Assembly: GCA_023253175.1 (NCBI GenBank)
Contig: JALRHH010000002.1
Coordinates: 199 to 64,198, forward strand
Length of the DNA stretch: 64,000 bases
From: Candidatus Saccharimonadia bacterium
GTDB taxonomy: Bacteria > Patescibacteriota > Saccharimonadia > Saccharimonadales > JALRHH01
Direction: 5' to 3'
Of the stretch, positions 19,698-53,603 are shown in pieces; the stretch's first letter is position 1, and each line of letters opens with the position of its first letter. The translations under genes and the position numbers were made by a program. Below the pieces are notes generated by a model. The model was not told the DNA's origin. It ran no database searches and saw nothing but the letters and a program-made list of their open reading frames with translations.

Positions 19698-19775
19698 CCC
19701 TCACGGGCAGCACCCTCAGATATTTACCAAAGTAAAAAGCCCATCCTATGATGAGCCTTTTACTTTGGTGGAGCT
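19698..19775. repeat. 78-bp direct repeat, copy B (native tmRNA 3' tip plus terminator)
   Basis: Overlaps the last 10 nt of ssrA (AGCTCCACCA on the minus strand) and the terminator hairpin. Confidence 0.9.
19727..19765 (-). terminator. intrinsic terminator of ssrA
   Basis: Minus strand AAAAGGCTCATC-ATAG-GATGGGCTTTTT followed by ACTTTGG, directly after the encoded CCA. Confidence 0.7.
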
Positions 19776-20148
19776 GGTGGGTACTGCCCCCACGTCCGCT
19801 AGTTCAACTGATTAGTCTGTCCTACAGGTTTAGGCTATTTAATCACTTCTACAGCTGATAATAGCCAAAACGCAGTAGAAGTTTGATTCTTGTCTTAAGC
19901 CAACTTCGAATCAAGAGTTAGCAGCGTCCAGAAAAATATAAAACGCTATTGTACTATCTGGCATCGAACAAAAGCATTGCTGTTAATTAAATTAAGCAGC
20001 TAGCGCAAAGGCTGCGCGACGTCCGAGAACGTTGTCAACCATTGCTGTAAGTGAATCTTTTGCATCTATTCAGATGTATCTATGACGCTGATAAGCGACC
20101 TGCTGATCTAACCGTTAAAGTCCAACGTCGAGCTTAAAATTCAGCCCC
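19766..20148 (-). ncRNA. ssrA: tmRNA (SsrA)
   Basis: Minus strand begins GGGGCTGAATTTTAAGCTCGACG and ends GGACGTGGGGGCAGTACCCACCAGCTCCACCA. The acceptor stem GGGGCTG/CAGCTCC includes the G3:U wobble used by AlaRS. An internal reading frame ...GTT CTC GGA CGT CGC GCA GCC TTT GCG CTA GCT GCT TAA gives a tag ending ...LGRRAAFALAA-stop. Confidence 0.9.
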
Positions 20149-33124: not shown

Positions 33125-34470
33125 AAAAACCACGTGGGTCCCCGACACAGAGTGCGGCAGCGTGTGCTGTCACTCTTTGCAATTGAATGCAGTGCCGGGG
33201 ACCCGTCTTACGATCCGTTATGTCTGTATACACAGACGATTCATCTCCCGAAGGAAATGAACACGGATCTGGTCAGCAGTTCCCGGGTCCCAGGGGGCAC
33301 GGGGGGCTGTCGGTGTGGGTCGTGTCGTCGCCACCGTGAGTGGTGTCCGAAGGACCTTCAGCCGGACCAGCGCCGCCGTCACCGGGGGAACCCACGCCGG
33401 ACTGACCGTTGTCGTCAGGAGTCCTGACGGGGTCGTCGTCCTTGGGCGGAGTACCACTGGTGCCGCCGGTGGGGCCCTGCGGGTGGTTCTTGACCGGGTC
33501 CTTGTAGGGACTGCCGTTGCCACCGCTGCCGCCGGGGTCGTTCTGACCCTTGGGCTTGAGGCAGCCGGTCGGGCTGTCGACGGTACCGGGCGGGCACTTC
33601 TCCGGCGGCGGAGGCGTGCAGTTGTGCTTGCAGCCACCGCTCGGGGTGTCACCGGGTCGATCCGGCTTGGGAGGCAGGAACTGCGGGTTGACGCAGCCAC
33701 CACGAACGAGAGCCACGCGGAGCTCGATCTTGGCGGCGTCCTTGGACGATGCCTTCTCGACCTCCTTGCAGTCGTCGGGGTTGATGAGCACCCAGCCGAG
33801 GTCGCCCTTGGCGTTGCTGCGGGTGCCCACCTGCTTGACCTCGCCGTCGGAGTAGGCGGTGTTGCCCTCCCACTTCGACTTGACGAGCATCTGGAACCCG
33901 ACCCAGTTGGTGGGATCGAGCGCCTGCTCCTTGGTCACGCCCGCCGCGTCGATGCTGTGCTGCAGCACCTCCTGGGCGGCCGAGTCGTCGGTCGCGAGGA
34001 ACTCCGTCAGGTCCTTGGCAGTCGTCGCCGACGCGCCAAAGTTGCCGGTGCCCTCCTCGGTCGCCTCCTTCAGAGACAGATCGAAGTTGGCCTCGCCGAC
34101 GACGAACTCCTTCTTCTTGAACCCCTGCTTCAGCAAGAGGTTCTCGACGGCGGCGTCCGGGTTCTCGCACATCTGCGAGACGAGGACCACCGTGGAGTCG
34201 TCGTTGGCGGCAGCCCCAGCGCTCCTGTTGTCGAAGATGACGCTGGAACCCCAGATCGCGGCGATCACGACGACGAGAGCGACGACGAGCACCAGACGCT
34301 TTCTGGACTTGAGGTACTGCATGACCTTCGCGCGCCGACCGGTAACCGGGGGCATGGAAGCGGTGTCATGACTGGTCATGATTTTCTCCTTCCTGGGAGA
34401 AATGTAGAGTTACGCACAGAGTAGCGCGCAGCTGTGTAATCTCCCATTCAGGGACAGCACGCTGATGACA
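33125..34470. other. compositionally foreign high-GC block
   Basis: Hand count: 33421-33480 has 44/60 G+C, against 21/60 for 34801-34860. The ORF track shows long ORFs in most frames here, reflecting stop-codon depletion. Bounded by inverted repeats 33136-33148/33192-33204 and 34449-34460/34490-34501. Confidence 0.8.
33273..34379 (-). CDS. membrane-anchored protein with a Pro/Gly/Cys-rich C-terminus and high-GC3 (actinobacterial-style) codon usage
   Basis: RBS ggaaggagaaaatcATG and an N-terminal TM helix LVLVVALVVVIAAIWGSSVIF. Third codon positions are almost all G/C. Chosen over the overlapping frames because of the RBS, the TM helix and the non-repetitive composition. Confidence 0.65.
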   Translation of the reverse strand: MTSHDTASMPPVTGRRAKVMQYLKSRKRLVLVVALVVVIAAIWGSSVIFDNRSAGAAANDDSTVVLVSQMCENPDAAVENLLLKQGFKKKEFVVGEANFDLSLKEATEEGTGNFGASATTAKDLTEFLATDDSAAQEVLQHSIDAAGVTKEQALDPTNWVGFQMLVKSKWEGNTAYSDGEVKQVGTRSNAKGDLGWVLINPDDCKEVEKASSKDAAKIELRVALVRGGCVNPQFLPPKPDRPGDTPSGGCKHNCTPPPPEKCPPGTVDSPTGCLKPKGQNDPGGSGGNGSPYKDPVKNHPQGPTGGTSGTPPKDDDPVRTPDDNGQSGVGSPGDGGAGPAEGPSDTTHGGDDTTHTDSPPCPLGPGNC

Positions 34471-34933: not shown

Positions 34934-37123
34934 CTACGCTTGAGCTGGCTCGTCGACCTTGAGTTTATCTTTTGCGAAGCTAAATCCAAAGGTACTTCCC
35001 TTGCCGACTTTACTTTCGAATATTAGTGCGCCCCCCTGGGCGACAATAACTTTCTTGGCCATAAAGAGTCCAAGACCCGTTCCATCCGGACGAGCCTTCT
35101 GCGCATTCTTAGCCCGGAAGAACTTGTTGAACAGATTATGCTGCTCTGACTCTGGGACACCAATACCGTTGTCTTTGACCCTGAACTCTACTGATTTGTC
35201 ATTTTCCGTCAAAGAAATATCAATCTTGCCGCCTGCTGGCGTGTAGTAGATCGCATTATCAACAAAGTTCATAATCACCTGCCGGATCTTGGTCTCATCT
35301 AACATAAGCGTAGGGAAGCTATCCGGCTGATTATATGTCAATGTCATATTCTTACCAGCCGCAGTCTCCCGGAGTTGCTGCACCTCACCCGCAATCACAT
35401 CTGACAAGTTAGTAGGCAGTGCGTCGATCACAAATTTACCTGTCTTGAGGCGAGAAAGGTTCAAAAGATCAGCAATCAAAAACACCATTCGTTGGCTACT
35501 GATAAACGACTGTTCCAGCAGTTTCTTTTGCATATCGGTTATCGGACCAGCATCGCCTTCTAGTACCATCGATACATAACCTTTGACAGAGGTGAGCGGG
35601 GTACGTAGCTGGTGAGAAGCCATACTAATAAACTCATCCTTTGTCTCATCCATGGCCTTCAACTTATCATTGGCTTTCTTTAATCGCTTCGTCGCATCAT
35701 TTACTTTTTGCTGCAATGTAACGTTAAAGTTCTCGATCTCTTCGAACCTTAGGCCATTCTGGACTGCGATTACCAATTCACCTGAAATTATCTTAATTAC
35801 GTCGACGTCCTGCTTATTGTAAGGATTCCCTGACTTCTTGTATCCAAGAGCAAGGTAGCCGACGCCTTCTGTATCAATTCCATAATCAGTAACGAGCCTT
35901 GAAATTAATGCAATATCATACTTACGCATCAGCTTCCTAAGGGCGCTCTGCTCCTCTAAATCTTCAGCAACTAGAATTTTTTGACTTGAGTCTGCAATAG
36001 TATCTGCAACAATCATTAAGTCCTCAATGCTCAGCTGTCGGCTATCAACACCGAGCATACGAGGGCTGGAATACTCTGTACTCCTAAGGTAGAACAATAC
36101 TGATGTAGATTTAATATAACTATTGATAATTCCGGCACTGTCTCTAAGTAGCTTTTCTACGTCCACATTAGCGACTACAGCCTTGTTTATGTCGTTAAGA
36201 AACGTCTGCGCATCGTACGCATCACGATAAAACAACTTATCAGAAACCCTATTAAACGTACGCTTTACGGGACCGTAAGATACGGCCGCGAATATCACAA
36301 GTATGACATTCGTAAGCGTACGCCAGTTCTCGTTGCCGGATCCGTTAAACAGATACTTTGAGGCCTCAAATGATATAAGGGCATATATGGTTAAAATAAG
36401 ACCAAGCGTAAACACATAGGCCAATGATCGAACCACGACCAACCTGAGATCAAATAACCTGTGTTTAAACACGGCGTAGTACATTCCGCCGACAAAAGCC
36501 GCCATTGGCACAATACCTATATTGGTAAGCCCAAACCAGCCCGTTGCCACAGGAAGTATGAAAAGCATTAAAACCAGCAGAGGCAGAGAGTAGGCAAAAC
36601 TGCGGTAGATAGTCTTTAGTCTTGTTTTTTGGGCGCCCTTACTGCGTTTAATATTCTTCTTTAAGACCACAAATATTGCAGCAATCATTGACACTAAAAA
36701 TACAAAATACACAGGCAAACCGGCCCCAAATTCAACTGCATAGACATTGTCCTGGAGATGGACTCCCGCAGGCACAAGTGCGGTAAACGACATTAAGCCT
36801 ACCAGAAAAATAGGCACATAGAGTGCCTTGAATATTTTTCTGGCCCTTTCGTCCTGAACCAGGCTAATGGTGAAGTGAAGCAGGTTAACTGCAGTAAAAT
36901 AACTAAAGAAGAAGACAAAATAATTAGCCTTGAGCGCTGTCTCGGGAGAGCGGCCTATGTCATTGCTTATATAGTTAGCAATGATCCACACAGCAACAGA
37001 TGCAGCCAAAGCAGCGAAAGTAATGCTTGTAACTGACTTTGCCTTCTGTACCAAAACGGCTGCCGAAAGTACGATCAATGCGACAATAATTATAAGATCA
37101 ATTATTAGGTATACATCCAGCAT
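34934..37123 (-). CDS. sensor histidine kinase with a polytopic N-terminal membrane domain
   Basis: About 7-8 predicted TM helices in the first ~300 aa, then a cytoplasmic linker/sensor region. H-box MASHQLRTPLTSV; ATPase boxes VDNAIYYTP, DNGIGVP and GTGLGLFMAK. Confidence 0.9.
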   Translation of the reverse strand: MLDVYLIIDLIIIVALIVLSAAVLVQKAKSVTSITFAALAASVAVWIIANYISNDIGRSPETALKANYFVFFFSYFTAVNLLHFTISLVQDERARKIFKALYVPIFLVGLMSFTALVPAGVHLQDNVYAVEFGAGLPVYFVFLVSMIAAIFVVLKKNIKRSKGAQKTRLKTIYRSFAYSLPLLVLMLFILPVATGWFGLTNIGIVPMAAFVGGMYYAVFKHRLFDLRLVVVRSLAYVFTLGLILTIYALISFEASKYLFNGSGNENWRTLTNVILVIFAAVSYGPVKRTFNRVSDKLFYRDAYDAQTFLNDINKAVVANVDVEKLLRDSAGIINSYIKSTSVLFYLRSTEYSSPRMLGVDSRQLSIEDLMIVADTIADSSQKILVAEDLEEQSALRKLMRKYDIALISRLVTDYGIDTEGVGYLALGYKKSGNPYNKQDVDVIKIISGELVIAVQNGLRFEEIENFNVTLQQKVNDATKRLKKANDKLKAMDETKDEFISMASHQLRTPLTSVKGYVSMVLEGDAGPITDMQKKLLEQSFISSQRMVFLIADLLNLSRLKTGKFVIDALPTNLSDVIAGEVQQLRETAAGKNMTLTYNQPDSFPTLMLDETKIRQVIMNFVDNAIYYTPAGGKIDISLTENDKSVEFRVKDNGIGVPESEQHNLFNKFFRAKNAQKARPDGTGLGLFMAKKVIVAQGGALIFESKVGKGSTFGFSFAKDKLKVDEPAQA

Positions 37124-37174
37124 ATACCTAATATTCTACTATTGCTCACATAATCGCAAGACGGTTATGGTAAA

Positions 37175-38104
37175 TTACACGCCCTTCCGACGATCTCTGT
37201 CGGCCTTTGTGAAGCTGGCGCTGGAATTAATACCAAGCTTTTCTCGAATCATCATAGTGCCAAGTCGACGATAAAATGCGGTGCGAGGCATCCTAATAAC
37301 TCCACTCTCAAGGGTCATCGAGTCCATAAAGCCAAAGCGTGGAGCCCAAATTGGATCTTTGCGATGATTCTTCACGTCCTTAGTCATGTGCAAAAATGCC
37401 TGAGACGAACCTAAGGCAGAGGCAACATCAACACCCTGAGATATTGATGGAAGTGGCGCATCCTCATCATTGGCAACCGCCTCTAAGGTGCGCATATCAG
37501 CATATGAAGGCAGACTTGGTAAGCACCGGCTTATGTCCAGCTTAAGATCCTTAACCTCATCAATTGGCATATCCTTCGGGATTCCCATCATAGTCCTGAA
37601 AGAATGTCGTCCCTCTGGATGAAAAGAAGTAATCTGCGCAGCAAACCCGACGTTCATAATGAAAACATCAGGAATACTACGACGGCGTGCTTCATCGGAA
37701 ACCATTGTTCCAAGATCAAGGTGCGTTAACTCGGTCTCGTCAAAAACGAGCGTAGAACGGCTCATGAACTCCTGGACGTTATCTTCGGTGATACCATCGG
37801 TATAGACACGAACTTTTGCCTCAGGGTTGATCTCATGGACCATATCACGAAATACTTCGGCCTTATTTTGTCCAAGAGTTTTATTAGTTGCACCAGGAAC
37901 ACGGTTAATGTTTTCTGCCTCAAAAACCTCTGGGTCAGCGATATCAAATGACTGGACGCCCATTCGTGCAAGCTTTTGACCAAGCTGGAAACCATCGCCA
38001 CCAACACCTGCAATAGCTACGGATGCATTCATAATAGCTTGTTGTTCCGCCTCATTCCAAAAACCATAGTTACGGGCAAATTCGGGACTATTAACAGAAT
38101 TCAT
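37175..38104 (-). CDS. ThiF/MoeB/E1-like adenylyltransferase family protein
   Basis: Rossmann motif VAIAGVGGDGFQLGQKLARMG followed by DIADPEVFEAENINR (compare the D.D..E.SNLNRQ block of the ThiF family). 309 aa. Confidence 0.7.
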   Translation of the reverse strand: MNSVNSPEFARNYGFWNEAEQQAIMNASVAIAGVGGDGFQLGQKLARMGVQSFDIADPEVFEAENINRVPGATNKTLGQNKAEVFRDMVHEINPEAKVRVYTDGITEDNVQEFMSRSTLVFDETELTHLDLGTMVSDEARRRSIPDVFIMNVGFAAQITSFHPEGRHSFRTMMGIPKDMPIDEVKDLKLDISRCLPSLPSYADMRTLEAVANDEDAPLPSISQGVDVASALGSSQAFLHMTKDVKNHRKDPIWAPRFGFMDSMTLESGVIRMPRTAFYRRLGTMMIREKLGINSSASFTKADRDRRKGV

Positions 38105-38133
38105 AATTACCTACCTTTAATTTAACCGAGTTG

Positions 38134-38922
38134 TTACGCGGCAGTCCTATTAATGTCGGTATTTAGGCTAAAGTGTTCTATATTCTGTTCTGTTGCACGA
38201 ATCCGGTTAACTGCTTGATCACTATCAAAACCAAGACCCTTAGCCATAGCAGGCACATCTACTGAGATACCAAGATTGTCAGCTGCATACTCTGGCACAA
38301 ACTTAGGATCAGCAATGCGCTCTAGCGGCACACCAAGACCACTCTTCAAGTAACGCTCGACAGTCGGCTCAACAACACCAAATGTCGGAACAAGGCCATG
38401 AGCAGTAATATGAGCTACTACTTTCTTGAATAATGGAGCGCTCATCTGCGCCTGAACCCTTGGGTTTTCATGGCGTGCAATGTACCGAGAGACCTCTGTT
38501 GAACCTATAGGAAGTGGGTTATCAGTAAATTTTTCTGGGAAAAATTCTTCAATAGGAAGTGGTCGTGGATCCATCGCGCGCTTCTCGATAGTACGAATAC
38601 TACCAACAACCCTCGCAAGACCCTCGCCTTCCTTTGACCTCTCAAGAAGAGCCCAGTGAGTAGAGCGAACATCGTCATTATCAACCTCAGTACCATCCTC
38701 ACGCACATCTGAATGAGGAATCATCTGAGTCTGGTATGCATACACGTTCGCACGAAGCTTAAGGTATCCGTCATGTTCTTGTTCGCGGCCAGGCAAAATC
38801 TGGTCACCAACAGCGATCATACCAACAGCAAAGTTTGTCTCTGGGCGCTGGTTAATAAACCAGGTACTTTCTACCGTTGGGATAACCATCTCGTTCGAAA
38901 TTGTGAGGTCGATCTTTGACAT
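38134..38922 (-). CDS. LuxI/FeeM-like GNAT-fold N-acyltransferase (autoinducer-synthase-like)
   Basis: By-eye alignment to LasI/LuxI blocks: YLKLRANVY (cf. KLRAQVF), an acidic cluster EDGTEVDNDD, VVGSIRTI (cf. GCWRIL), STEVSRYIA (cf. WELSRFAI), and FGVVEPTVERYLKSGLGV (cf. TVTTVGVEKMMIRAGLDV). Confidence 0.55.
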   Translation of the reverse strand: MSKIDLTISNEMVIPTVESTWFINQRPETNFAVGMIAVGDQILPGREQEHDGYLKLRANVYAYQTQMIPHSDVREDGTEVDNDDVRSTHWALLERSKEGEGLARVVGSIRTIEKRAMDPRPLPIEEFFPEKFTDNPLPIGSTEVSRYIARHENPRVQAQMSAPLFKKVVAHITAHGLVPTFGVVEPTVERYLKSGLGVPLERIADPKFVPEYAADNLGISVDVPAMAKGLGFDSDQAVNRIRATEQNIEHFSLNTDINRTAA

Positions 38923-38940
38923 TGGATTCCTTAATTATTA

Positions 38941-38993
38941 CTAAAATAAAAACGACATGACTGTTAGGCCTTTTGGGCTGTCAGTCATGTCGT
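38941..38993 (-). terminator. terminator-like hairpin plus T-tract inside the 5' leader of the acyltransferase operon
   Basis: Minus strand ACGACATGACTG-(18 nt)-CAGTCATGTCGT followed by TTTTTATTTT. Then comes RBS AAGGAA and the ATG at 38922. Confidence 0.5.
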
Positions 38994-39016
38994 AGTCTTG
39001 TAAAGAACTGTTTGCT

Positions 39017-39044
39017 ATTATACGCTTTTTTGCATATTTGTCAA
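39017..39044 (-). promoter_or_regulatory. consensus sigma70-type promoter for the acyltransferase-ThiF-kinase operon
   Basis: Minus strand TTGACA-(16 nt)-TATAAT, with -35 at 39039-39044 and -10 at 39017-39022. Confidence 0.55.
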
Positions 39045-39270
39045 TATACTTTTGTAAATACATAATTGCTTATGATAATAAAAAGACACCGGACATAGCA
39101 AAGCGCCATATCTAGTGTCTAATTGTGCTGCAAAAGTACTATCTTAGTTGTACTCCTTATACTCCTCCAAGTCAACAAAGATTTGTTAGTCTTCTATTTT
39201 AAAGTTATATAGAACTAATTGATACAAGTTTAATATATAATCCTTTTACGGATAGCTAAATGGATGTAAC

Positions 39271-39792
39271 ATGAAAACGAAGAATCTTCTTGGCGATAGT
39301 AAAAGCAAAACTTTTGGTAACAAAACCAATGAGGCGACCAGCAGGCAAACGGTAGTGGCGGTCATATTCGACCCTTCATCAGATACATATCTTTGTCAAT
39401 ACTGGGAAGAATACAGTGGACTTACGTGTCTATTATCGGGAGGTATAGAAGATGATGAAGACAGCTATGAGGCTCTAAGAAGAGAAATTCGTGAAGAAAC
39501 TGGCTACATCGACTTCGATATTATAGGCATCCTTGGAGGCACCCTAAACACTTATTACGTGAAAGGCTCGACAGGAGAAAGCCTTGTCAAACACATAACC
39601 CCCTACCTTGTTCGGTTAAACTCATCTCGACAAATAGAAACTACTAAAGAAGAAGATGAAAGATTTGAGAACCTTTTCCTAGACCACAAGAATATTAATG
39701 AATTGATGACAAAATATGAAAAAAATAGCGGATCGACTCTTGCTGATCATAAAGAAATTTTATCAAGGGCGGTTAGGTATTTAAACCAATAA
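39271..39792 (+). CDS. NUDIX hydrolase
   Basis: Nudix box GGIEDDEDSYEALRREIREETG. Confidence 0.8.
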   Translation: MKTKNLLGDSKSKTFGNKTNEATSRQTVVAVIFDPSSDTYLCQYWEEYSGLTCLLSGGIEDDEDSYEALRREIREETGYIDFDIIGILGGTLNTYYVKGSTGESLVKHITPYLVRLNSSRQIETTKEEDERFENLFLDHKNINELMTKYEKNSGSTLADHKEILSRAVRYLNQ

Positions 39793-39847
39793 TTGACATA
39801 TATTGATTTGTGTTTTATAGTTTTCCTAATTTAACATAGGTTGAGCC

Positions 39848-42808
39848 GTGGAAAAGCCAGTACTAGATCAAGCAATAGATATGCCTCCAGCAAATATTAT
39901 CATTCTTGGCTTGCCGGGTTCAGGCAAGACTACCCTTGGCGAGCTAATGGCAGAAGGCAATGGCGAAATGGAGTACATTTCAGTTGGCCAAATCTCACGC
40001 GAGCTACCTGATGACGATGAGCGCCGTCATTATGTAGATAATCTCTATAAGGAACACAATCGTCCGGTAGGAAGTCCGGATTTTTTTGTTGAACTCGTCA
40101 GACCAGCAATCAAAAAAGCGCATAGTGAGAATAAAGGCATAATCTTAGATGGCATTCCAAAAAAACCAGAAGAAATAGAACCACTTAATCGACTCCTCGA
40201 AGAAGAGGGCATCAAAATTGATGGCATCGTAATTTGTGAAGTTTCACCGTTTACAGCCCTACAGCGGGTTATAGACAGAGGGCCCCGTGAAGGAGGGCTT
40301 GATACCGTAGACACGGCCATAAACCGAGGCGCAGCTTACTGGGAGGCTATTGAGGGATTTCGGGGCAGACTCGGTGGGTTTCTTGGGCTTAAAATTGTGA
40401 ATGTTGATACGGAGCATTTAGACCCACAAACGGCAGTACATAAAGCGAATGAGATTTTGGAATCGATACGCCTTAAAGAGGCATCTGCCAATGTAATAGA
40501 TATAAAAACAAAAGAAGTAACGCTAGAAAAAGCTGAAATTGATCAAGTTCTGCAGTCAATCGAGAAACGTAACGACAAAGAGACTATGTTGTTGCTTTCT
40601 AGGCTATTTGTAGATACAAAATATGTACCCTTAATCGAGAAAATCCTTGATTCTAACCCGGACATAACACCATCTGACGTAAGTCATGAATTAGTTGCAG
40701 CAATGCCGGAGTTTAAATATCTACCCCTATCTGCAGGACGTTATGCTGATATGCTGATCAGAAATGTCTATGAACCCCTAAGAAACCTAGCTAATACCAT
40801 ACCCAAAGAAGCCAGGCTGCGAGCTAGTGGCAGACTGGATTCAGAAGTGTTAGGCGTCGTCATCAGAGAGGCTCTTGTTACCAAGGAGATTATTCGATGC
40901 TATCAAGGAAAAGCTAATAAAGTAAAAAGCTCTGAAGAGTTTGTAAATGAGGAATTCGAGATAAGAAAAGCAGACCTCGAGTACACAGAGTCTTTCCTTA
41001 GAAAAGCCAATGCACTACCAGACGGTATGACATTAAGAACACTCATGATGATACAACCACGATATTGGAACATCTTCACCTCCAGTGCATTACTTGGGTC
41101 AGTTGACGGCAACTATCAAAAGCATATCAATAGCCTTCCTGGCTCTCATCACTCACTATCAGTGCCTGTTGATATGCCGAGGCGAATGATAGCCAACTCC
41201 ATGGGAGAGTATCAACCATTCATTGAAGCCGTATCAACAAGCGAGAGAAGCGGCTTTGACACAAGCCTAGGATTCCTACACGTGATAGGTATGGACGAGA
41301 ATGGCAAAGCGTTTCAAGTTGAATGGCCTTTGTTGATGCAGGATTCGAGACTGGCGATGCATCCAAATGCATTATTAAGAGACATGCTCGCGCGAGGACA
41401 TGGGATATATTTTAATCATGATTTCTGGCATAACATTGTACCCGTATATGCTGAAAGCTTTAACTTATATCATCCTCACGCGCCTATTGCATATGGTGGA
41501 CTAATGCCAGAATATTTAGATTTCGGTAAAAGTCTACGATCGGAGAAAGAGGAATACGAGATTTTTGTTGCCATGACGCACGCACAGGCACAGCGATACA
41601 GAATGGAGCACGACCCTGAATACAAAAGATCACAAATAGAAGCAGCGTTGACAATCATTAATGATATACCCCACTTGAAGCAACAGCTTATTCAAAGTGA
41701 CGGCGAGAAATTTGCAGAAGATGTTTCAAAGTATTTCATGACCGTTACCATCGGCAGATTGTTGAATATCATCCCGCCTGATTCAAACGATCTTCTTCCC
41801 ATTGTAGATAAGCTTGAGAAAGACCCTTACCTTTCTCAAGACATATCAAAGTCAGACTTCTTAAAGCTTCTCTTTACTCAACGAATGGCCCTTGCAACAA
41901 AAGATAGTAGGCTAAGTTTTATGCAGGATATTCTGTCCGAGAGCAGCATAGATGAAGCCATAAAAGAAAGAATCATCGAAAGTCTTCTGCCCACAATCAA
42001 TAATATTGAACGTAAGCCAGCTCTTTCTCATGAGCTTATTGAGGAGCTCTGCCAACACAAAGCCATCGTCTCTATCGCGCTACAGTACATTGAACCCGCT
42101 AATCCCCATGCAGAATCAGGTTCAGTCGCACTATACAAATCCCTGGAAGATATGGGTCTCAAAGCACTTCTAGACAATGACACTCAACACATTAACCTAC
42201 GAGGCCTTTCGCTACTACGATGGCTAGCAATAGTCGCGCCACAAAGAGATCCCTTAAAAGGTCATATGGAAAAAGTACACGGCAAGAACGGGATTATTTT
42301 TGGAAACGAAATAGTTCCGCCTACAGAAGTTATCAGACGACACACTGAAACAATAATTCAAAATCAAGACGTATATGAATACAGAAAATGGGCCCGAGAA
42401 TTTGGTCAGAGTTTGGCGGCTAGTATCTACGATCTACTCCTGCACGACGGTCAAGCCAATAACAAAGACCAACGTACCGCCTTGTACATTCTCTCCAACT
42501 ACAATGGAGTAGACCCCGCTCAGCGACAGATCATAAACAATGGCATTAGAAAGCTAGATTTAATGTTAGAGGACTTAGTAAATGCAAAATACTCTCTTGA
42601 TATTTCTGATCTTGAAGAAATATCTGAACTCGCTGATGTGTGTAATGAGTATAGCCCCGAGCTCAGTGAGACAATCGCAGACAACCTAAAGCGCTACTCA
42701 TTCCTACAGCAGCAAGAAGTTGCCTATCAGACATTCGCAAGCACAAACTATGCTACGTCAAAAGCCGCCATAGAGAATTCAACCATGGATCTACTAGATA
42801 ATACATAA
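39848..42808 (+). CDS. 986-aa protein: N-terminal adenylate-kinase-like P-loop NMP kinase domain fused to a ~780-aa domain of unknown function
   Basis: IIILGLPGSGKTTLGELMA (P-loop), ISVGQISR, GIILDGIPKKPEEIEPL and RVIDRGPREGG parallel the adenylate kinase blocks GxPGxGKGT / ISTGDxLR / ILDGFPRT / R..R.DD. The remainder is largely helical with His-rich patches (FNHDFWHN, YHPHAP). GTG start at 39848; an alternative ATG lies at 39881. Confidence 0.6.
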   Translation: MEKPVLDQAIDMPPANIIILGLPGSGKTTLGELMAEGNGEMEYISVGQISRELPDDDERRHYVDNLYKEHNRPVGSPDFFVELVRPAIKKAHSENKGIILDGIPKKPEEIEPLNRLLEEEGIKIDGIVICEVSPFTALQRVIDRGPREGGLDTVDTAINRGAAYWEAIEGFRGRLGGFLGLKIVNVDTEHLDPQTAVHKANEILESIRLKEASANVIDIKTKEVTLEKAEIDQVLQSIEKRNDKETMLLLSRLFVDTKYVPLIEKILDSNPDITPSDVSHELVAAMPEFKYLPLSAGRYADMLIRNVYEPLRNLANTIPKEARLRASGRLDSEVLGVVIREALVTKEIIRCYQGKANKVKSSEEFVNEEFEIRKADLEYTESFLRKANALPDGMTLRTLMMIQPRYWNIFTSSALLGSVDGNYQKHINSLPGSHHSLSVPVDMPRRMIANSMGEYQPFIEAVSTSERSGFDTSLGFLHVIGMDENGKAFQVEWPLLMQDSRLAMHPNALLRDMLARGHGIYFNHDFWHNIVPVYAESFNLYHPHAPIAYGGLMPEYLDFGKSLRSEKEEYEIFVAMTHAQAQRYRMEHDPEYKRSQIEAALTIINDIPHLKQQLIQSDGEKFAEDVSKYFMTVTIGRLLNIIPPDSNDLLPIVDKLEKDPYLSQDISKSDFLKLLFTQRMALATKDSRLSFMQDILSESSIDEAIKERIIESLLPTINNIERKPALSHELIEELCQHKAIVSIALQYIEPANPHAESGSVALYKSLEDMGLKALLDNDTQHINLRGLSLLRWLAIVAPQRDPLKGHMEKVHGKNGIIFGNEIVPPTEVIRRHTETIIQNQDVYEYRKWAREFGQSLAASIYDLLLHDGQANNKDQRTALYILSNYNGVDPAQRQIINNGIRKLDLMLEDLVNAKYSLDISDLEEISELADVCNEYSPELSETIADNLKRYSFLQQQEVAYQTFASTNYATSKAAIENSTMDLLDNT

Positions 42809-42894
42809 AAACCCTGATCTCTATTTTATATTATTCTTTAATTTTCATCAGGAGTGGGGTAAGATGTCAACAACTTAAGTTAAAACACATAATT

Positions 42895-43287
42895 ATGCTA
42901 AAGATTGCGGTCATAGAAGACGACAAGCCGATCCAGATGCTCTACAAGACAAAGTTAGAGGTTGATGGTTTTGCCGTGGTGACAGCAGACAATGGCAAGC
43001 AAGGGCTAGAACGGCTCGAAGCTGAACTGCCTGATTTGGCCCTAGTTGACCTGCGCATGCCAGAAATGGGCGGAGATGAAATGCTGTCTCGCCTGCGTGA
43101 AACAGAGTGGGGGGCGAGCATTCGCGTGATCATTCTGACCAATATTAGCCGTGACGAAGCGCCCAGTGCGCTTCGTTTCTTAAATGTAGACCGCTACCTC
43201 GTCAAGGCGCATCACACCCCAAAACAGGTTGTTGACGTCGTAAATGAAGTACTGAACATTAAAAAGCATTCTAATCAAGGACGCTGA
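42895..43287 (+). CDS. single-domain (CheY-like) response regulator 1
   Basis: Receiver residues are intact: EDD, phospho-acceptor D in LALVDLRMP, T in ILTN, K in LVKA. No output domain. Confidence 0.85.
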   Translation: MLKIAVIEDDKPIQMLYKTKLEVDGFAVVTADNGKQGLERLEAELPDLALVDLRMPEMGGDEMLSRLRETEWGASIRVIILTNISRDEAPSALRFLNVDRYLVKAHHTPKQVVDVVNEVLNIKKHSNQGR

Positions 43288-43331
43288 CGAAGTTGCTTGC
43301 CGAAAGTCAGTAATTCACTTACGATAAGACT

Positions 43332-43700
43332 ATGCCTAAAATTGCAATTATCGAAGACGACCAAGCTATTAGCCAGATGTACCGCATGAAGTTCGAAGCC
43401 GAGGGCTTTGAGGTTGAAACTGCGGCTAATGGAAAGCTCGGACTTGAACTCGCCGATAAAATGCGACCAGATATTATCCTTTTGGACCTTATGATGCCAG
43501 AAATGACCGGTGATGAGATGTTAGTTAAGCTCCGTGAAGCCGACTGGGGCAAGAACATCCGCGTGATTATCCTGACAAATATGGGCGAACAAGAAGCCCC
43601 ACCAGTCATCAAAACACTTGGCGTAAAGCGCTTCATCATCAAAGCAGAGATGACCCCGCGGCAAGTTGCCGAAATGGTAAAGAACGAGCTTGCAGCGTAG
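43332..43700 (+). CDS. single-domain (CheY-like) response regulator 2
   Basis: Paralogue of RR1 with EDD, ILLDLMMP, ILTN and IIKA. Confidence 0.85.
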   Translation: MPKIAIIEDDQAISQMYRMKFEAEGFEVETAANGKLGLELADKMRPDIILLDLMMPEMTGDEMLVKLREADWGKNIRVIILTNMGEQEAPPVIKTLGVKRFIIKAEMTPRQVAEMVKNELAA

Positions 43701-43703
43701 CCT

Positions 43704-44084
43704 ATGGCGCATATTGTTTTAGTCGAAGACGACGCACTGCTGTCGGAGATGTATCAAGCCGCACTCATCAGCGAAGGCTTTCAGTGCTCTGTTGCGCTTG
43801 ACGGTACAACCGGCCTTGACCTGATCACCCACACCCAGCCAGACTTGGTTCTACTGGATCTGATGCTTCCACAAATGAGTGGCGACGAGGTACTTGCGAA
43901 AATGCGACAGCTAGATCGCACCAAGCATACTCGTGTCATAATTATGACCAATATCAGCGAAAGCGAAGCCCCTGAACAGCTTAAACACCTTCAGTTTGAG
44001 CGTTACATCGTAAAAGCCAACACGTCACTACTCGAAGTTATCGAAATTATTAAAAAAATGTTCGTATCCCAACCTGTTAAGTAG
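43704..44084 (+). CDS. single-domain (CheY-like) response regulator 3
   Basis: Paralogue of RR1/RR2 with EDD, VLLDLMLP, IMTN and IVKA. Starts 3 nt after the RR2 stop. Confidence 0.85.
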   Translation: MAHIVLVEDDALLSEMYQAALISEGFQCSVALDGTTGLDLITHTQPDLVLLDLMLPQMSGDEVLAKMRQLDRTKHTRVIIMTNISESEAPEQLKHLQFERYIVKANTSLLEVIEIIKKMFVSQPVK

Positions 44085-46944: not shown

Positions 46945-47021
46945 GGGCCTGTAGCTCAGTTGGTTAGAGCAGCGGACTCTTAATCCGCGTGTCGTGGGTT
47001 CGAATCCCACCAGGCCCTCCA
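46945..47021 (+). tRNA. tRNA-Lys (anticodon CUU), CCA encoded; integration target of the island
   Basis: GGGCCTGTAGCTCAGTTGGTTAGAGCAGCGGACTCTTAATCCGCGTGTCGTGGGTTCGAATCCCACCAGGCCCTCCA. Anticodon loop is CTCTTAA. Confidence 0.9.
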
Positions 47022-48602
47022 AATATCCAGTTTTGAATCTGAATACCAATCTATATCTGTAGATTGGTATTTTTGTTTAGTTCGTCCCTTTACAGCCAAG
47101 GGCTTAAGCCATTCATTAGGTTCGATAGTTAATTTGCCATTCATTAGGGTTATAGATTTGCTGAATGATGTAATAATTTTTCTCTTATCTAGGATCGTCC
47201 CACTACTGAATTTTGAAGCCGCAGTAAAGGCTAATTCTATGGTGTCTTCCGCAATTTTAAGCCAATCAGTTGTCCGCTTATTGCAATCAATCAACTCTTC
47301 GTCTAATTTACGAAGGTTTTGCTTAAAAATGCCGGACCTTGTGGTATATTCAGAGTCGTTTATAAGCTTTAATGCGCGCATTTCGATAAGGCCATTCAAC
47401 TTATCCATCTCGACCTCTTTCCTGTCCATCACATTCTGCCTAAATGCCTTATTAAATTTACTCTCAGCAGCATGCTTACTGCGCAAAATAGAAAGTGCGA
47501 TGTCTTTAAACTCAGGTACAATTTGATATTGCGATATTATCTCCCTGATCTGATTTTCGATTGACTCGAGACGTGTATATTTCTTTTGGGTACAAACTTT
47601 CGACTGGCTCTTCCTGGTACAGTGATAATGCACATAAGTTTTATACTCATTCAACGACTTAATATATTTAGTATTAGACTTTCCCACTACGCTACAGCCA
47701 CACTCCCCACATCTAATCAAACCCGTAAAAGAGTAGGCGTGGGTATTTGATCTAGGCTTTCCTCTATCTTTAAGAATACGTTGAGCAAGATCAAACTGCT
47801 CTAGCGATATCATAGCCTTGTGATTTCCTTTGTAGAGTTCACCATTGTGCGATATATAACCTGCGTAGAACGGATTAGTAAATATGTTATAGATCATGCT
47901 CGTGGGCATTTTCTTGCCACCAGCACGCTTTGTTCTTCGTGTTCTAAAACCCCATTCTTCATTCGCAATACGACATATTTGGCCAGGAGTATAAATTCCA
48001 CTAAACAACATATCCCACATTTTTAAGATTAAGTCGTAAGGCTTTTGGTCAATCTCAGTAGACGTAATAATTTTGTCTTTATTGGTCTGCAGCCTACCGA
48101 ATTGATCAAGTAAGGGAACTTTCATATATCCCTGCGGAACCTGACCGGGACGCTCACCGTTTGACGCTTTCTGTTCCATACCCCGCTTAACATCGCGGCC
48201 TTGTTTTGCGGACTCGTACTGTGATTGGTTCATCGTCATTTGAAGCATCATTATGCCCTCGGCACTATTGTCAAAACCGAATGTACAGAATTTTAAATCT
48301 TTTAACGTTGATCTGAGCCTGTATGTTATGGCAGCTGAATCTATTTCATTACGAGATAGTCTATTTGGATGCCAACATACTATTCCATCTGCAAATCCTT
48401 CATCTATTAGATCGAGCATTTCATTAAAAATGCTCCGACCAGGCTTAAAAGCAGTTTTACTTTCAGGTTCCATCCACTTCACTATCTCAATATTCGGATA
48501 GTATTCCTTGATTTTACTTATCTGTGACTGAAGTGAAAGCTCCTGCCGCTCTGCCCGCTCTTCAGACTTTCTAACATATGCGATGTATCTTAGGTTTGTC
48601 AT
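46980..48602 (-). CDS. large serine recombinase (integrase)
   Basis: N-terminal resolvase-type catalytic region IAYVRKSEERAERQELSLQSQ, a recombinase domain, a zinc ribbon CGECG...HYHC and a long coiled-coil C-terminus. The last ~13 codons are encoded by the reverse complement of the tRNA-Lys T-arm (…WRAWWDSNPRHAD). Confidence 0.85.
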   Translation of the reverse strand: MTNLRYIAYVRKSEERAERQELSLQSQISKIKEYYPNIEIVKWMEPESKTAFKPGRSIFNEMLDLIDEGFADGIVCWHPNRLSRNEIDSAAITYRLRSTLKDLKFCTFGFDNSAEGIMMLQMTMNQSQYESAKQGRDVKRGMEQKASNGERPGQVPQGYMKVPLLDQFGRLQTNKDKIITSTEIDQKPYDLILKMWDMLFSGIYTPGQICRIANEEWGFRTRRTKRAGGKKMPTSMIYNIFTNPFYAGYISHNGELYKGNHKAMISLEQFDLAQRILKDRGKPRSNTHAYSFTGLIRCGECGCSVVGKSNTKYIKSLNEYKTYVHYHCTRKSQSKVCTQKKYTRLESIENQIREIISQYQIVPEFKDIALSILRSKHAAESKFNKAFRQNVMDRKEVEMDKLNGLIEMRALKLINDSEYTTRSGIFKQNLRKLDEELIDCNKRTTDWLKIAEDTIELAFTAASKFSSGTILDKRKIITSFSKSITLMNGKLTIEPNEWLKPLAVKGRTKQKYQSTDIDWYSDSKLDIWRAWWDSNPRHAD

Positions 48603-49471: not shown

Positions 49472-49700
49472 CTTCCAGTCATATTTTCAGTATATGCATC
49501 CATTCCCAAAAAGCGTGTTGTGAAAGTGCGCAGCAGCATATTAGCCTCGGCCCAGACTGTATTGTTGTATAATCCTGGTAAGTGGATTTCCACTGAGACC
49601 TAAAGCCACTCCTAAAAAAGAAGGTATGGTCACCAAATCTATAGCGAAAAAAATCCCGTCGTTTGGGTACTTTTCGCTATAGTCATAGTCCGAAAGGAAT

Positions 49701-49964
49701 ATGGGCGGCCGAAAGGTCGTCGCCCAGCGGCGGGTTTTTTGTATGCCGAAAATCCAGGAGAGCAAAATTAATATGCCCAACTTAGTTAAAGATAAATCTA
49801 GTTACCTACCCGTACTGCTTGTAGCCACTATAGTCATACTAGTAGGTATTGTGCTGTACGCTTTATACGGACCATCAGAGGCTGACAAACTGCCTAATAC
49901 ACCAGATATTCACCAGCAGATGCTAGACGAAACTGTTCGCCAAAACGAATTAAACTCTAACTGA
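49701..49964 (+). CDS. possible small membrane protein
   Basis: Contains TM helix YLPVLLVATIVILVGIVLYALY. The likely start is an internal Met at 49743 or 49773. It is the only plus-strand ORF in the island. ORF-only evidence. Confidence 0.3.
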   Translation: MGGRKVVAQRRVFCMPKIQESKINMPNLVKDKSSYLPVLLVATIVILVGIVLYALYGPSEADKLPNTPDIHQQMLDETVRQNELNSN

Positions 49965-53346: not shown

Positions 53347-53603
53347 TATATGTAACTGTGGCGCCTATGCAACCATGAGCAATACAATCTGAAAAATATT
53401 TTTGTTTTAGCCATAAGTACGATACTATACAGATATCTGCTAACAGCAGCATCAAGAGTACGGTTAGAGATCTAGCTCGATGATCCGTCGGCAACCTGCG
53501 AAATGTAAGGTGCTCCACCTAGACCAATTACTAACAATAATTGGAAGGATGTGGTTACAACATACTTGAAGCCCATCCTTTCTAGAGATAGAAGGGATTT
53601 TTA

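Follow-up and report, generated by a model that had tools for sequence, protein, structure and literature searches.

We analyzed a 64,000-nucleotide (nt) stretch of DNA from Candidatus Saccharimonadia bacterium (contig JALRHH010000002.1, positions 199 to 64,198; referred to as the window below) and found that its region 34934-44084 carries a conserved signaling and biosynthetic module, in which the genes for an acyltransferase with a LuxI/FeeM fold, a ThiF-like adenylating enzyme, and a polytopic histidine kinase form one operon, accompanied by divergently encoded receiver-only response regulators. Approximately 40 loci in Saccharibacteria carry this module, which is smaller than the 9-kb, eight-gene system that an earlier note on this DNA had proposed. 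We conclude with high confidence that four to six genes make up the actual module and that two unrelated genes interrupt it in the window's species. We give a probability of roughly one half to the reading that this module is a quorum-sensing-like unit working on a labile N-acyl azlactone-type signal that would be read by the co-transcribed kinase; both the chemistry and the link between ligand and sensor are what we infer from the evidence laid out below. Our confidence is high for the conclusions on gene content, moderate for a cyclized N-acyl amino acid as the product, and lower for that product as the ligand of the kinase.

All eight open reading frames (ORFs) of the locus and their domains were present where the earlier note had placed them, including the gaps of 29 nt and 51 nt in the leftward operon. 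The six that belong to the module are the following (window positions; lengths in amino acids, aa):

38134-38922, minus strand: acyltransferase with a LuxI/FeeM fold, first gene of the operon, 262 aa (Pfam matches of its family, and a structural model)
37175-38104, minus strand: ThiF-like adenylating enzyme, a predicted cyclase, 309 aa (PF00899, 1e-28)
34934-37123, minus strand: histidine kinase, 729 aa (HisKA, 2.8e-16; HATPase_c, 8.5e-25)
42895-43287, plus strand: receiver-only regulator RR1, 130 aa (Response_reg, 5.6e-19)
43332-43700, plus strand: receiver-only regulator RR2, 122 aa (Response_reg, 1.3e-20)
43704-44084, plus strand: receiver-only regulator RR3, 126 aa (Response_reg, 7.1e-19)

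To follow these genes across genomes, neighborhoods were collected around distant and close relatives of the acyltransferase, in species-representative genomes and in metagenomes, and nine window proteins were located in each locus by tblastn. The acyltransferase, ThiF, and kinase genes were contiguous and on the same strand in 20 of the 20 complete loci of the non-redundant set and likewise wherever a partial locus had enough flank, and this order held despite acyltransferase identities down to 31-39% and differing outer flanks. The intergenic gaps ranged from -37 to 73 nt between the acyltransferase and ThiF genes and from 24 to 84 nt between the ThiF and kinase genes. One to three divergent receivers usually completed the module. 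Two or three were present in the window's clade, where RR1 orthologs were found upstream of the acyltransferase gene, and most loci had an RR2-type receiver divergently upstream, with RR2 orthologs being 59-89% identical (52% in one fragmentary locus). In relatives with an acyltransferase 66-68% identical to that of the window, murD, three receivers, and the operon followed one another directly. Likewise, murD (TIGR01087 at 1e-106) starts 35 nt after RR3 in the window, and similar gaps between receiver and murD were found in loci L006 and L018. Conservation of the neighborhoods thus bears out the earlier note's proposal of a signaling or biosynthetic module for six genes, i.e., those of the left arm and the receivers, and fails for the other two, which encode a NUDIX hydrolase and a 986-aa protein. 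In one lineage, the divergent intergenic region holds additional genes, namely a HAD-type hydrolase gene and two LPG_synthase_C paralogs (L036 661-4118; also L013 and L037). The latter genes of L036 (DUF2156, aminoacyl-transferase-like) lie directly upstream of the acyltransferase gene and are co-directional with it.

The assignment of the 262-aa protein as a LuxI/FeeM-type acyltransferase, made in the earlier note, stands because of the Pfam matches of its family, its predicted fold, and a set of LuxI-like invariant residues. Profile searches matched the ThiF enzyme, the NUDIX hydrolase, and an adenylate kinase domain (residues 16-170 of the 986-aa protein) as that note had expected, and they placed the acyltransferase itself in no Pfam family (E<=0.01); NCBIfam gave only a weak match of this protein to an exosortase-associated acyltransferase family (5e-5). 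Its 59 homologs, all of Saccharibacteria type, carry Autoind_synth, Acetyltransf_5, and FeeM domains. Among 43 aligned family members, Autoind_synth was matched by 31 (best 4.4e-13), Acetyltransf_5 by 29, and FeeM by 16. An AlphaFold (AF2) model of the window protein had a mean predicted local distance difference test (pLDDT) score of 94.7, and its best PDB folds in Foldseek were BjaI, RpaI, and MesI, which are CoA-dependent N-acyl homoserine lactone (AHL) synthases, followed by LasI and by FeeM, an N-acyl amino acid synthase (NAS). In the alignment, R57, D81, D84, R110, E143, S145, and R146 were invariant, in parallel to the conserved set of LuxI. The Autoind_synth match leaves an AHL synthase and an amino-acid N-acylase undistinguished, because NAS enzymes have the same fold. 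The NAS-type features of the protein are its LuxI/FeeM (GNAT-related) fold and the position of its gene, always immediately upstream of that for ThiF. The acyltransferase genes of the module should probably not be read as AHL synthases.

By sequence comparison, the window ThiF is nearest to the ThiF domains of ThiF-flavin oxidase (FDO) fusions, which have the architecture of OxzB and TrzS, and we placed it through these fusions and through curated families. Its best NCBIfam match was PRK08223, at 146 bits, followed by PRK14851 and PRK14852. An exhaustive HMMER search with the window ThiF returned standalone Saccharibacteria orthologs and two kinds of fusions. Those of the first kind are acyltransferase-ThiF single chains of approximately 540-590 aa with ThiF at the C terminus (P0196, P0202, P0204, and P0214). 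In three of them (P0202, P0204, and P0214; 547-559 aa), the N-terminal half matches Acetyltransf_5, FeeM, or Autoind_synth in addition to the ThiF match, and in P0196 (587 aa), in which Pfam sees ThiF only, it is 30% identical to the window acyltransferase (BLASTP, E 3e-18). We link the acyltransferase and ThiF functionally because such single-chain fusions exist in nature. Those of the second kind, the ThiF-FDO fusions (approximately 625-670 aa), have an N-terminal ThiF and a C-terminal domain with a PSxxNxQPW motif, and their C termini match the families of Acg-type FMN oxidoreductases and of Rv1355c (TrzS). P0312 and P0279 score above the PRK08223 cut-off; they also align with PRK14851 over its full length, though below the cut-off of that model. 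P0198 is 43% identical to the window ThiF over the whole ThiF (E 1.7e-68) and scores 188 bits with PRK08223, under the cut-off. On the 989-aa model PRK14852, ThiF aligns at approximately 314-590 and the ThiF-oxidase fusions at 314-797, with approximately 310 N-terminal positions left over, and this family may describe a triple acyltransferase-ThiF-oxidase fusion.

In the window ThiF, the residues for ATP binding and catalysis are conserved, with R11, GxGGxG33-38, N65, R68, K81, and D122 being invariant. Its closest solved structure by sequence is TcdA (1e-12), over residues 15-126 only. The protein contains only one Cys and lacks a CxxC zinc motif. We found no ThiS/MoaD-like, beta-grasp, or other conserved small ORF accompanying the module among the window ORFs and the annotated neighborhoods. 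A tblastn search with three FDO domains (E<=1) had no match in the window or among the fetched loci, and no annotated neighborhood of the module had a Nitroreductase Pfam match.

Oxidase-less acyltransferase-ThiF pairs were also found in Actinomycetota, in both cases with no kinase. One is in the chromosome of Leucobacter sp. (CP183188.1; L024 9231-10939), where the ThiF is 56% identical to that of the window and transposase and group II intron genes are nearby. The other, on plasmid pN9T4-3 of Rhodococcus qingshengii (L034 2852-5735), is split by IS256. These pairs beside mobile-element genes suggest that genes have passed horizontally between Saccharibacteria and the phylum to which their hosts belong. 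A recent transfer from Saccharibacteria to Leucobacter was ruled out, since the G+C content (GC) of the pair, 0.65-0.67, is within that of its flanks, 0.60-0.71. A GGDEF-EAL gene lies one gene away from the Leucobacter pair, and the gene for the fusion P0196 (L031 2822-7764, GC 0.62) is divergent from an adjoining 984-aa PAS-GGDEF-EAL gene. The trzAS genes of M. tuberculosis are flanked by cyclic di-GMP genes, according to their authors (PMC12856293).

The kinase has approximately six to eight hydrophobic segments in residues 1-255, according to its hydropathy, then a linker or GAF-like region at approximately 300-470, and then HisKA and HATPase_c. On reading, its H-box is SHQLRTPL, and the N, G1, F, and G2 boxes are present. 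The core resembles kinases of the PhoR, WalK, and PnpS type (NCBIfam). The sensor had no Pfam match at E<=1 in residues 1-300 or 290-493, with a weak GAF_2 match in one ortholog only. RR1, RR2, and RR3 all consist of a receiver domain and nothing else, with residues of the DD, D52-53, T82, and K104 type. Judged by these motifs, the two sides have the features of a two-component system: the kinase carries the H-box and ATPase domain, the receivers have an acidic pocket as well as the Asp, Thr/Ser, and Lys residues, and the two are predicted to be partners. No DNA-binding output domain is encoded among the locus proteins, as the earlier note had observed.

Across loci, the acyltransferase and the membrane and linker regions of the kinase diverge fast, and ThiF and the kinase core diverge slowly. 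The comparison between the window and L006 showed a different pattern. The receivers (76-89% identical), murD (70%), the acyltransferase (66%), and kinase residues ~440-729 (80-100%) were conserved between the two, whereas ThiF (~31%) and kinase residues 1-415 (~27%) had diverged. The diverged ThiF and sensor form one contiguous block of approximately 2.2 kb (window 35880-38104; L006 6737-9100). On the other hand, another relative at a similar distance has kept ThiF at 83%, and pairs of comparable kinase-core identity elsewhere show 58-91% for ThiF and 60-78% for the sensor. The partial correlation between the identities of ThiF and of the kinase transmembrane region, given the kinase core, was 0.60 over 210 locus pairs, which are not independent and in which L006 weighs heavily. 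This ThiF-sensor block fits a matched pair of enzyme and sensor, but a single neutral recombination of neighboring DNA would leave an identical picture.

Upstream of the operon, we found a promoter with a structured leader and, further upstream, a second unit of the same design. Their parts are the following:

39017-39044, minus strand: operon promoter TTGACA-16-TATAAT, a perfect sigma-70 consensus (12/12 positions)
38997-39009, minus strand: 5' box of the proximal leader, AGTTCTTTACAAG
38953-38992, minus strand: hairpin of the proximal leader
38941-38952, minus strand: U-run of the proximal leader, followed by the Shine-Dalgarno sequence and the ATG
39078-39175, minus strand: second upstream unit (z -3.85)
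39147-39175, minus strand: promoter-like site of the second unit, TTGACT-17-TACAAC
39128-39140, minus strand: box of the second unit, AGTACTTTTGCAG
39084-39120, minus strand: hairpin of the second unit, followed by a U-run

The proximal unit spans 38941-39044 on the minus strand, and its 90-nt leader folds at -26.6 kcal/mol (z -4.7). In the predicted fold, the AGTTCTTTACAAG box pairs with the Shine-Dalgarno region around the hairpin. Within the window, the box was found at two places only, namely in the two upstream units. L005 and L006 keep the leader layout at the nucleotide level, L002, L004, L014, and L015 have it with unrelated stems, and loci with short intergenic regions have the promoter only. 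The leader units had no Rfam match at E<=1. The upstream units may be attenuators or a small RNA, and they could matter, the system being without a DNA-binding regulator.

In the mechanism that we propose, the LuxI/FeeM-fold enzyme would N-acylate an amino acid, probably from acyl-CoA. The ThiF-like enzyme would adenylate the carboxylate of this N-acyl amino acid with ATP, and the amide oxygen would close the ring to give an N-acyl oxazol-5(4H)-one (azlactone). With no flavin desaturase, the product would be saturated and hydrolytically labile. A saturated N-acyl azlactone is a plausible end product because no oxidase is present here and because the saturated cyclized intermediate was detected with TrzS when its oxidase half was disabled (PMC12856293); since the flavin oxidase is absent, the saturated azlactone, and not a conjugated oxazolone of the tyrazolone type, would be the expected product. 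The autoinducer-like signal sensed by the co-transcribed polytopic kinase would be this lipophilic product or one of its derivatives, and the kinase would phosphorylate the receiver-only proteins, the output of which would proceed by protein-protein contacts and not by DNA binding. The terminator-containing leader would additionally gate the expression of the operon.

Several points weigh against the reading as a quorum-sensing-like unit. The known oxazolone pathways are defined by a flavin desaturase, which is absent from the window and the fetched loci, and the product may differ from the one proposed. The window ThiF lies below the curated cut-off of PRK08223 (146 versus 266 bits). Four or five loci (L022, L051, L052, and L061) have no adjacent receiver, and receiver-only outputs, as they appear here, would leave the response undefined. 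The ThiF-sensor block is a single evolutionary event on adjacent DNA and could be one neutral recombination, and the pairwise correlations between ThiF and sensor are not phylogenetically independent. Saccharibacteria are reported to lack fatty-acid synthesis, so that the acyl donor is uncertain.

The alternative that survives best, which we regard as possible if on the unlikely side, is that the metabolite of the enzyme pair is not the ligand of the kinase. It could be an N-acyl amino acid derivative that is antimicrobial or aimed at the host, or else a membrane lipid, with the two-component system regulating its production by another cue, e.g., host contact or the state of the envelope, or being its neighbor by mere synteny. 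N-acyl tyrosine derivatives have been reported to be antimicrobial (PMC12479983, PMC12856293), and the likeness of the kinase core to PhoR, WalK, and PnpS and the run of the receivers into murD, in the window and similarly in L006 and L018, also speak for this alternative. So do the pairs lacking a kinase in Leucobacter and Rhodococcus and the L013/L036 lineage, which has gained its two LPG_synthase_C genes upstream in the manner of a growing biosynthetic cluster. However, the kinase gene lies within the biosynthetic operon in every Saccharibacteria locus, as is usual for autoinduction loops. ThiF and the sensor vary jointly, whereas the kinase core and the acyltransferase do not, and no exporter or immunity gene was conserved near the module in the annotated neighborhoods.

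We consider it improbable that the module is a classical AHL system, in which a LuxI-type synthase would use S-adenosylmethionine (SAM) and acyl-CoA, the kinase would be LuxN/AinR-like, and ThiF would be a separate matter. The Autoind_synth matches in 31/43 family members (best 4.4e-13), the three CoA-dependent AHL synthases at the top of the fold search, and the retained LuxI-like set of invariant Arg, Asp, Glu, and Ser are consistent with such a system; the Joint Genome Institute (JGI) labels the homologs as AHL synthetase, and AHL synthesis was proposed for kinase-adjacent LuxI homologs of the Candidate Phyla Radiation (CPR) (PMC7567580). However, AHL synthesis needs no carboxylate activation, while ThiF is always adjacent to the acyltransferase here and fused to it elsewhere. 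FeeM and TyzA, which have the same fold, are amino-acid N-acyltransferases (PMC10404671), and the window acyltransferase reaches no Pfam threshold. No gene for a LuxR-type receptor or transcription factor was found in the window region or in the annotated neighborhoods. The position of the conserved LuxI tryptophan is non-aromatic here, which is a weak point, as it comes from a manual alignment to LasI.

Far less probable still is a system resembling those of ribosomally synthesized and post-translationally modified peptides (RiPPs), in which ThiF would act like an E1 or MccB enzyme on the C terminus of a protein or ribosomal peptide and the acyltransferase would modify the peptide. The short promoter-to-terminator unit upstream of the enzyme genes recalls the position of mccA, which is upstream of the enzyme genes in the microcin C operon. 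In addition, for most of the ThiF-like enzymes characterized so far, the substrate is a protein, a peptide, or tRNA (PMC12596934). We rejected a precursor peptide in the upstream units, since their small ORFs are not conserved among the window, L005, and L006 and overlap the hairpins. The missing ThiS/MoaD-like or other conserved small ORF, the single Cys with no CxxC motif, and the nearest relatives of the window ThiF, which are small-molecule cyclases, likewise argue against a peptide or protein substrate.

The two genes that interrupt the module, and the block retained next to the receivers, are the following:

39271-39792, plus strand: NUDIX hydrolase, 173 aa (Pfam, 3.2e-11; Nudix box intact on reading)
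39848-42808, plus strand: adenylate-kinase fusion, 986 aa (adenylate-kinase match in residues 16-170 only)
42856-42870, plus strand: GGGGTAAGATGTCAA block, approximately 25 nt upstream of RR1, with an exact match also upstream of RR1 in L002, L003, and L017

The least credible alternative is the eight-gene system of the earlier note, in which the NUDIX hydrolase and the 986-aa fusion would help to make or turn over a nucleotidylated signal: both proteins handle nucleotides and their genes sit between the two arms in the window's species, but we reject it because both genes are absent from all other module-bearing loci. By tblastn, neither had a homolog in any related module locus outside the window's own species, so the 9-kb locus does not hold together as one system, and with this failure of co-conservation the role suggested for the two nucleotide-handling proteins and for a nucleotidylated metabolite falls as well. 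The family of the 986-aa protein comprises only 13 sequences in a collection of 5.8 billion proteins, all of Saccharibacteria type, and its gene is found elsewhere beside Maf and NDK or beside LytR, and even a copy with 82% identity sits in a variable region, where its neighbor is an APH kinase. In the window, this gene has its own promoter-like site (39793-39821, 11/12 positions), and the NUDIX and 986-aa genes, with a GC of 0.39 and 0.43, lie below the window value of 0.46. The GGGGTAAGATGTCAA block is probably the retained promoter of the receiver operon, with TAAGAT as the -10 element. As these 15 nt are common to the L002-type loci, they suggest that the insertion landed between two divergent promoters. 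We conclude that the genes for the NUDIX hydrolase and the 986-aa protein came into the divergent intergenic region by an insertion at the species level and have no part in the module, and they should be dropped from the picture of it.

The 986-aa protein has a short-type adenylate-kinase domain followed by an uncharacterized C-terminal region of approximately 780 aa. This region carries strongly conserved, His-rich family motifs (NSxPGSHHSL, FNHDxWHN, YHPHAP, and EKEEYE), gave nothing meaningful in Pfam at E<=10, and found adenylate kinases only in a PDB profile search of the protein. The AF2 model (pLDDT 78.9) matched the PDB in Foldseek with its N-terminal domain only. The proximity of the gene to Maf and NDK in relatives hints at nucleotide metabolism.

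Some other features of the window lie outside the module. At 33273-34424, two ORFs of approximately 368 aa on opposite strands overlap almost wholly (local GC 0.53). Neither has a Pfam match, and the strand that is called differs between assemblies of the window's species. A large serine recombinase gene adjoins a tRNA gene (46945-48602 region) and is followed by a low-GC stretch (0.36, 50-52 kb), all of which may be an integrated element. The window also carries a LOOT RNA (49597-49721), a SAM riboswitch (53446-53555), and a gene for transfer-messenger RNA (tmRNA; 19766-20148). A defense system was considered for the locus and set aside: the similarities found by PADLOC were of a generic kind (E1-E2 and receiver), and the acyltransferase had none.

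Saccharibacteria live as obligate epibionts, have genomes of approximately 1 Mb, and possess very few regulatory systems. If they make a conserved signal of their own, this would be relevant to how they perceive density or contact with the host. For the role of N-acyl oxazolones, an NAS-ThiF pair locked in an operon with a kinase and its receivers offers a candidate receptor and a testable circuit. A bolder version, which we hold to be speculative and rather unlikely, is a private, agr-like communication of Saccharibacteria, in which a desaturase-less NAS-ThiF pathway would make a short-lived N-acyl azlactone, a dedicated kinase would read it, and specificity cassettes of ThiF and sensor would define pherotypes. 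The enzyme pair has its closest relatives in high-GC genomes of Actinomycetota type, and Actinomycetota, which include the hosts of Saccharibacteria, make related oxazolones. From these two observations, the kinase could, in this bolder version, also eavesdrop on the oxazolones of the host, and the orphan oxazolone lipids would thereby gain their first receptor and their first physiological role.

The known systems closest to the module in chemistry are OxzAB of Pseudoalteromonas rubra and, in M. tuberculosis, TyzACB (Rv2336-Rv2338c) and TrzAS (Rv1356c/Rv1355c). OxzA/OxzB (bioRxiv 10.1101/2020.06.11.147165), TyzA/TyzB/TyzC (PMC10404671), and TrzA/TrzS (PMC12856293) make N-acyl oxazolones. In these pathways, an acyltransferase N-acylates Tyr, Phe, or Trp from acyl-CoA, TyzB, TrzS, or OxzB cyclizes the N-acyl amino acid in an ATP-dependent step that has been established experimentally, and a flavin oxidase of the nitroreductase superfamily desaturates the cyclized product (PMC10404671, PMC12856293, bioRxiv 10.1101/2020.06.11.147165). 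The physiological role of N-acyl oxazolones is explicitly unresolved, with signaling only suggested (PMC12856293, bioRxiv 10.1101/2020.06.11.147165). Like these pathways, the module has an NAS of LuxI/FeeM fold encoded immediately upstream of a ThiF-like enzyme. The best folds of its acyltransferase include BjaI and FeeM, the best structural matches reported for TyzA (PMC10404671), and its ThiF is nearest to the ThiF domains of the ThiF-FDO fusions. Unlike them, it has no flavin oxidase, fused or nearby, in the window or the fetched loci. Moreover, the oxazolone clusters are known from Pseudomonadota, Actinomycetota, and Planctomycetota, and none of them has a histidine kinase in the operon, whereas the module is found in Patescibacteria and has one. 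Because the defining oxidase is absent, we regard the module as a variant of the pathway rather than a member of it, and its chemistry, as judged from gene content, is probably a desaturase-less version of what was described between 2020 and 2025.

Among other ThiF-like enzymes, TcdA/CsdL resembles the window ThiF in adenylating a small carboxylate and closing a five-membered ring. However, its substrate is tRNA (t6A to ct6A), the similarity is confined to residues 15-126, and the C-terminal half of the window ThiF differs and is common to the PRK08223 family. The module is also unlike the E1/ThiF-MoeB systems, as it has no gene for a ubiquitin-like, ThiS, or MoaD protein and its ThiF has one Cys and no CxxC.

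In staphylococci, the hypervariable region of agr comprises the 3' end of agrB, agrD, and the sensor of agrC. The module is like agr in having a contiguous block of a signal-maturation enzyme and the sensor half of a kinase that is far more diverged than the kinase core. It is unlike agr in that its signal would not be a peptide and in that only one divergence event is seen here, the specificity groups being putative. In LuxM-LuxN and AinS-AinR, the synthase gene is adjacent to that of a polytopic membrane kinase receptor. The module shares with them a gene for an acylated-signal synthase beside that of a multi-pass kinase and the lack of a LuxR-type receptor, which is an analogy of wiring only. 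Its synthase is not of the LuxM/AinS family, its kinase is not a hybrid, it has no Hpt and no DNA-binding end regulator, and it has an extra ATP-dependent cyclase.

A previous study reported LuxI homologs beside sensor kinases in CPR bacteria (18 cases) and proposed them as complete quorum-sensing systems based on AHLs (Bernard et al. 2020, PMC7567580). The entries examined belong to Giovannonibacteria, WWE3, and Kerfeldbacteria, and in them the kinase is the immediate neighbor of the LuxI homolog; the terms "ThiF" and "adenylyltransferase" never occur in the searched supplementary files of PMC7567580. Our literature search returned nothing linking Saccharibacteria, ThiF, and N-acyl amino acid chemistry, and no account of the module in that group. 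The earlier note had known of no described system with this combination; for the pair of NAS and ThiF cyclase, OxzAB, TyzACB, and TrzAS had already been characterized, while the fixed coupling of a desaturase-less NAS-ThiF pair to a kinase and receivers in Saccharibacteria does seem undescribed. That ThiF and the kinase sensor vary together is new.

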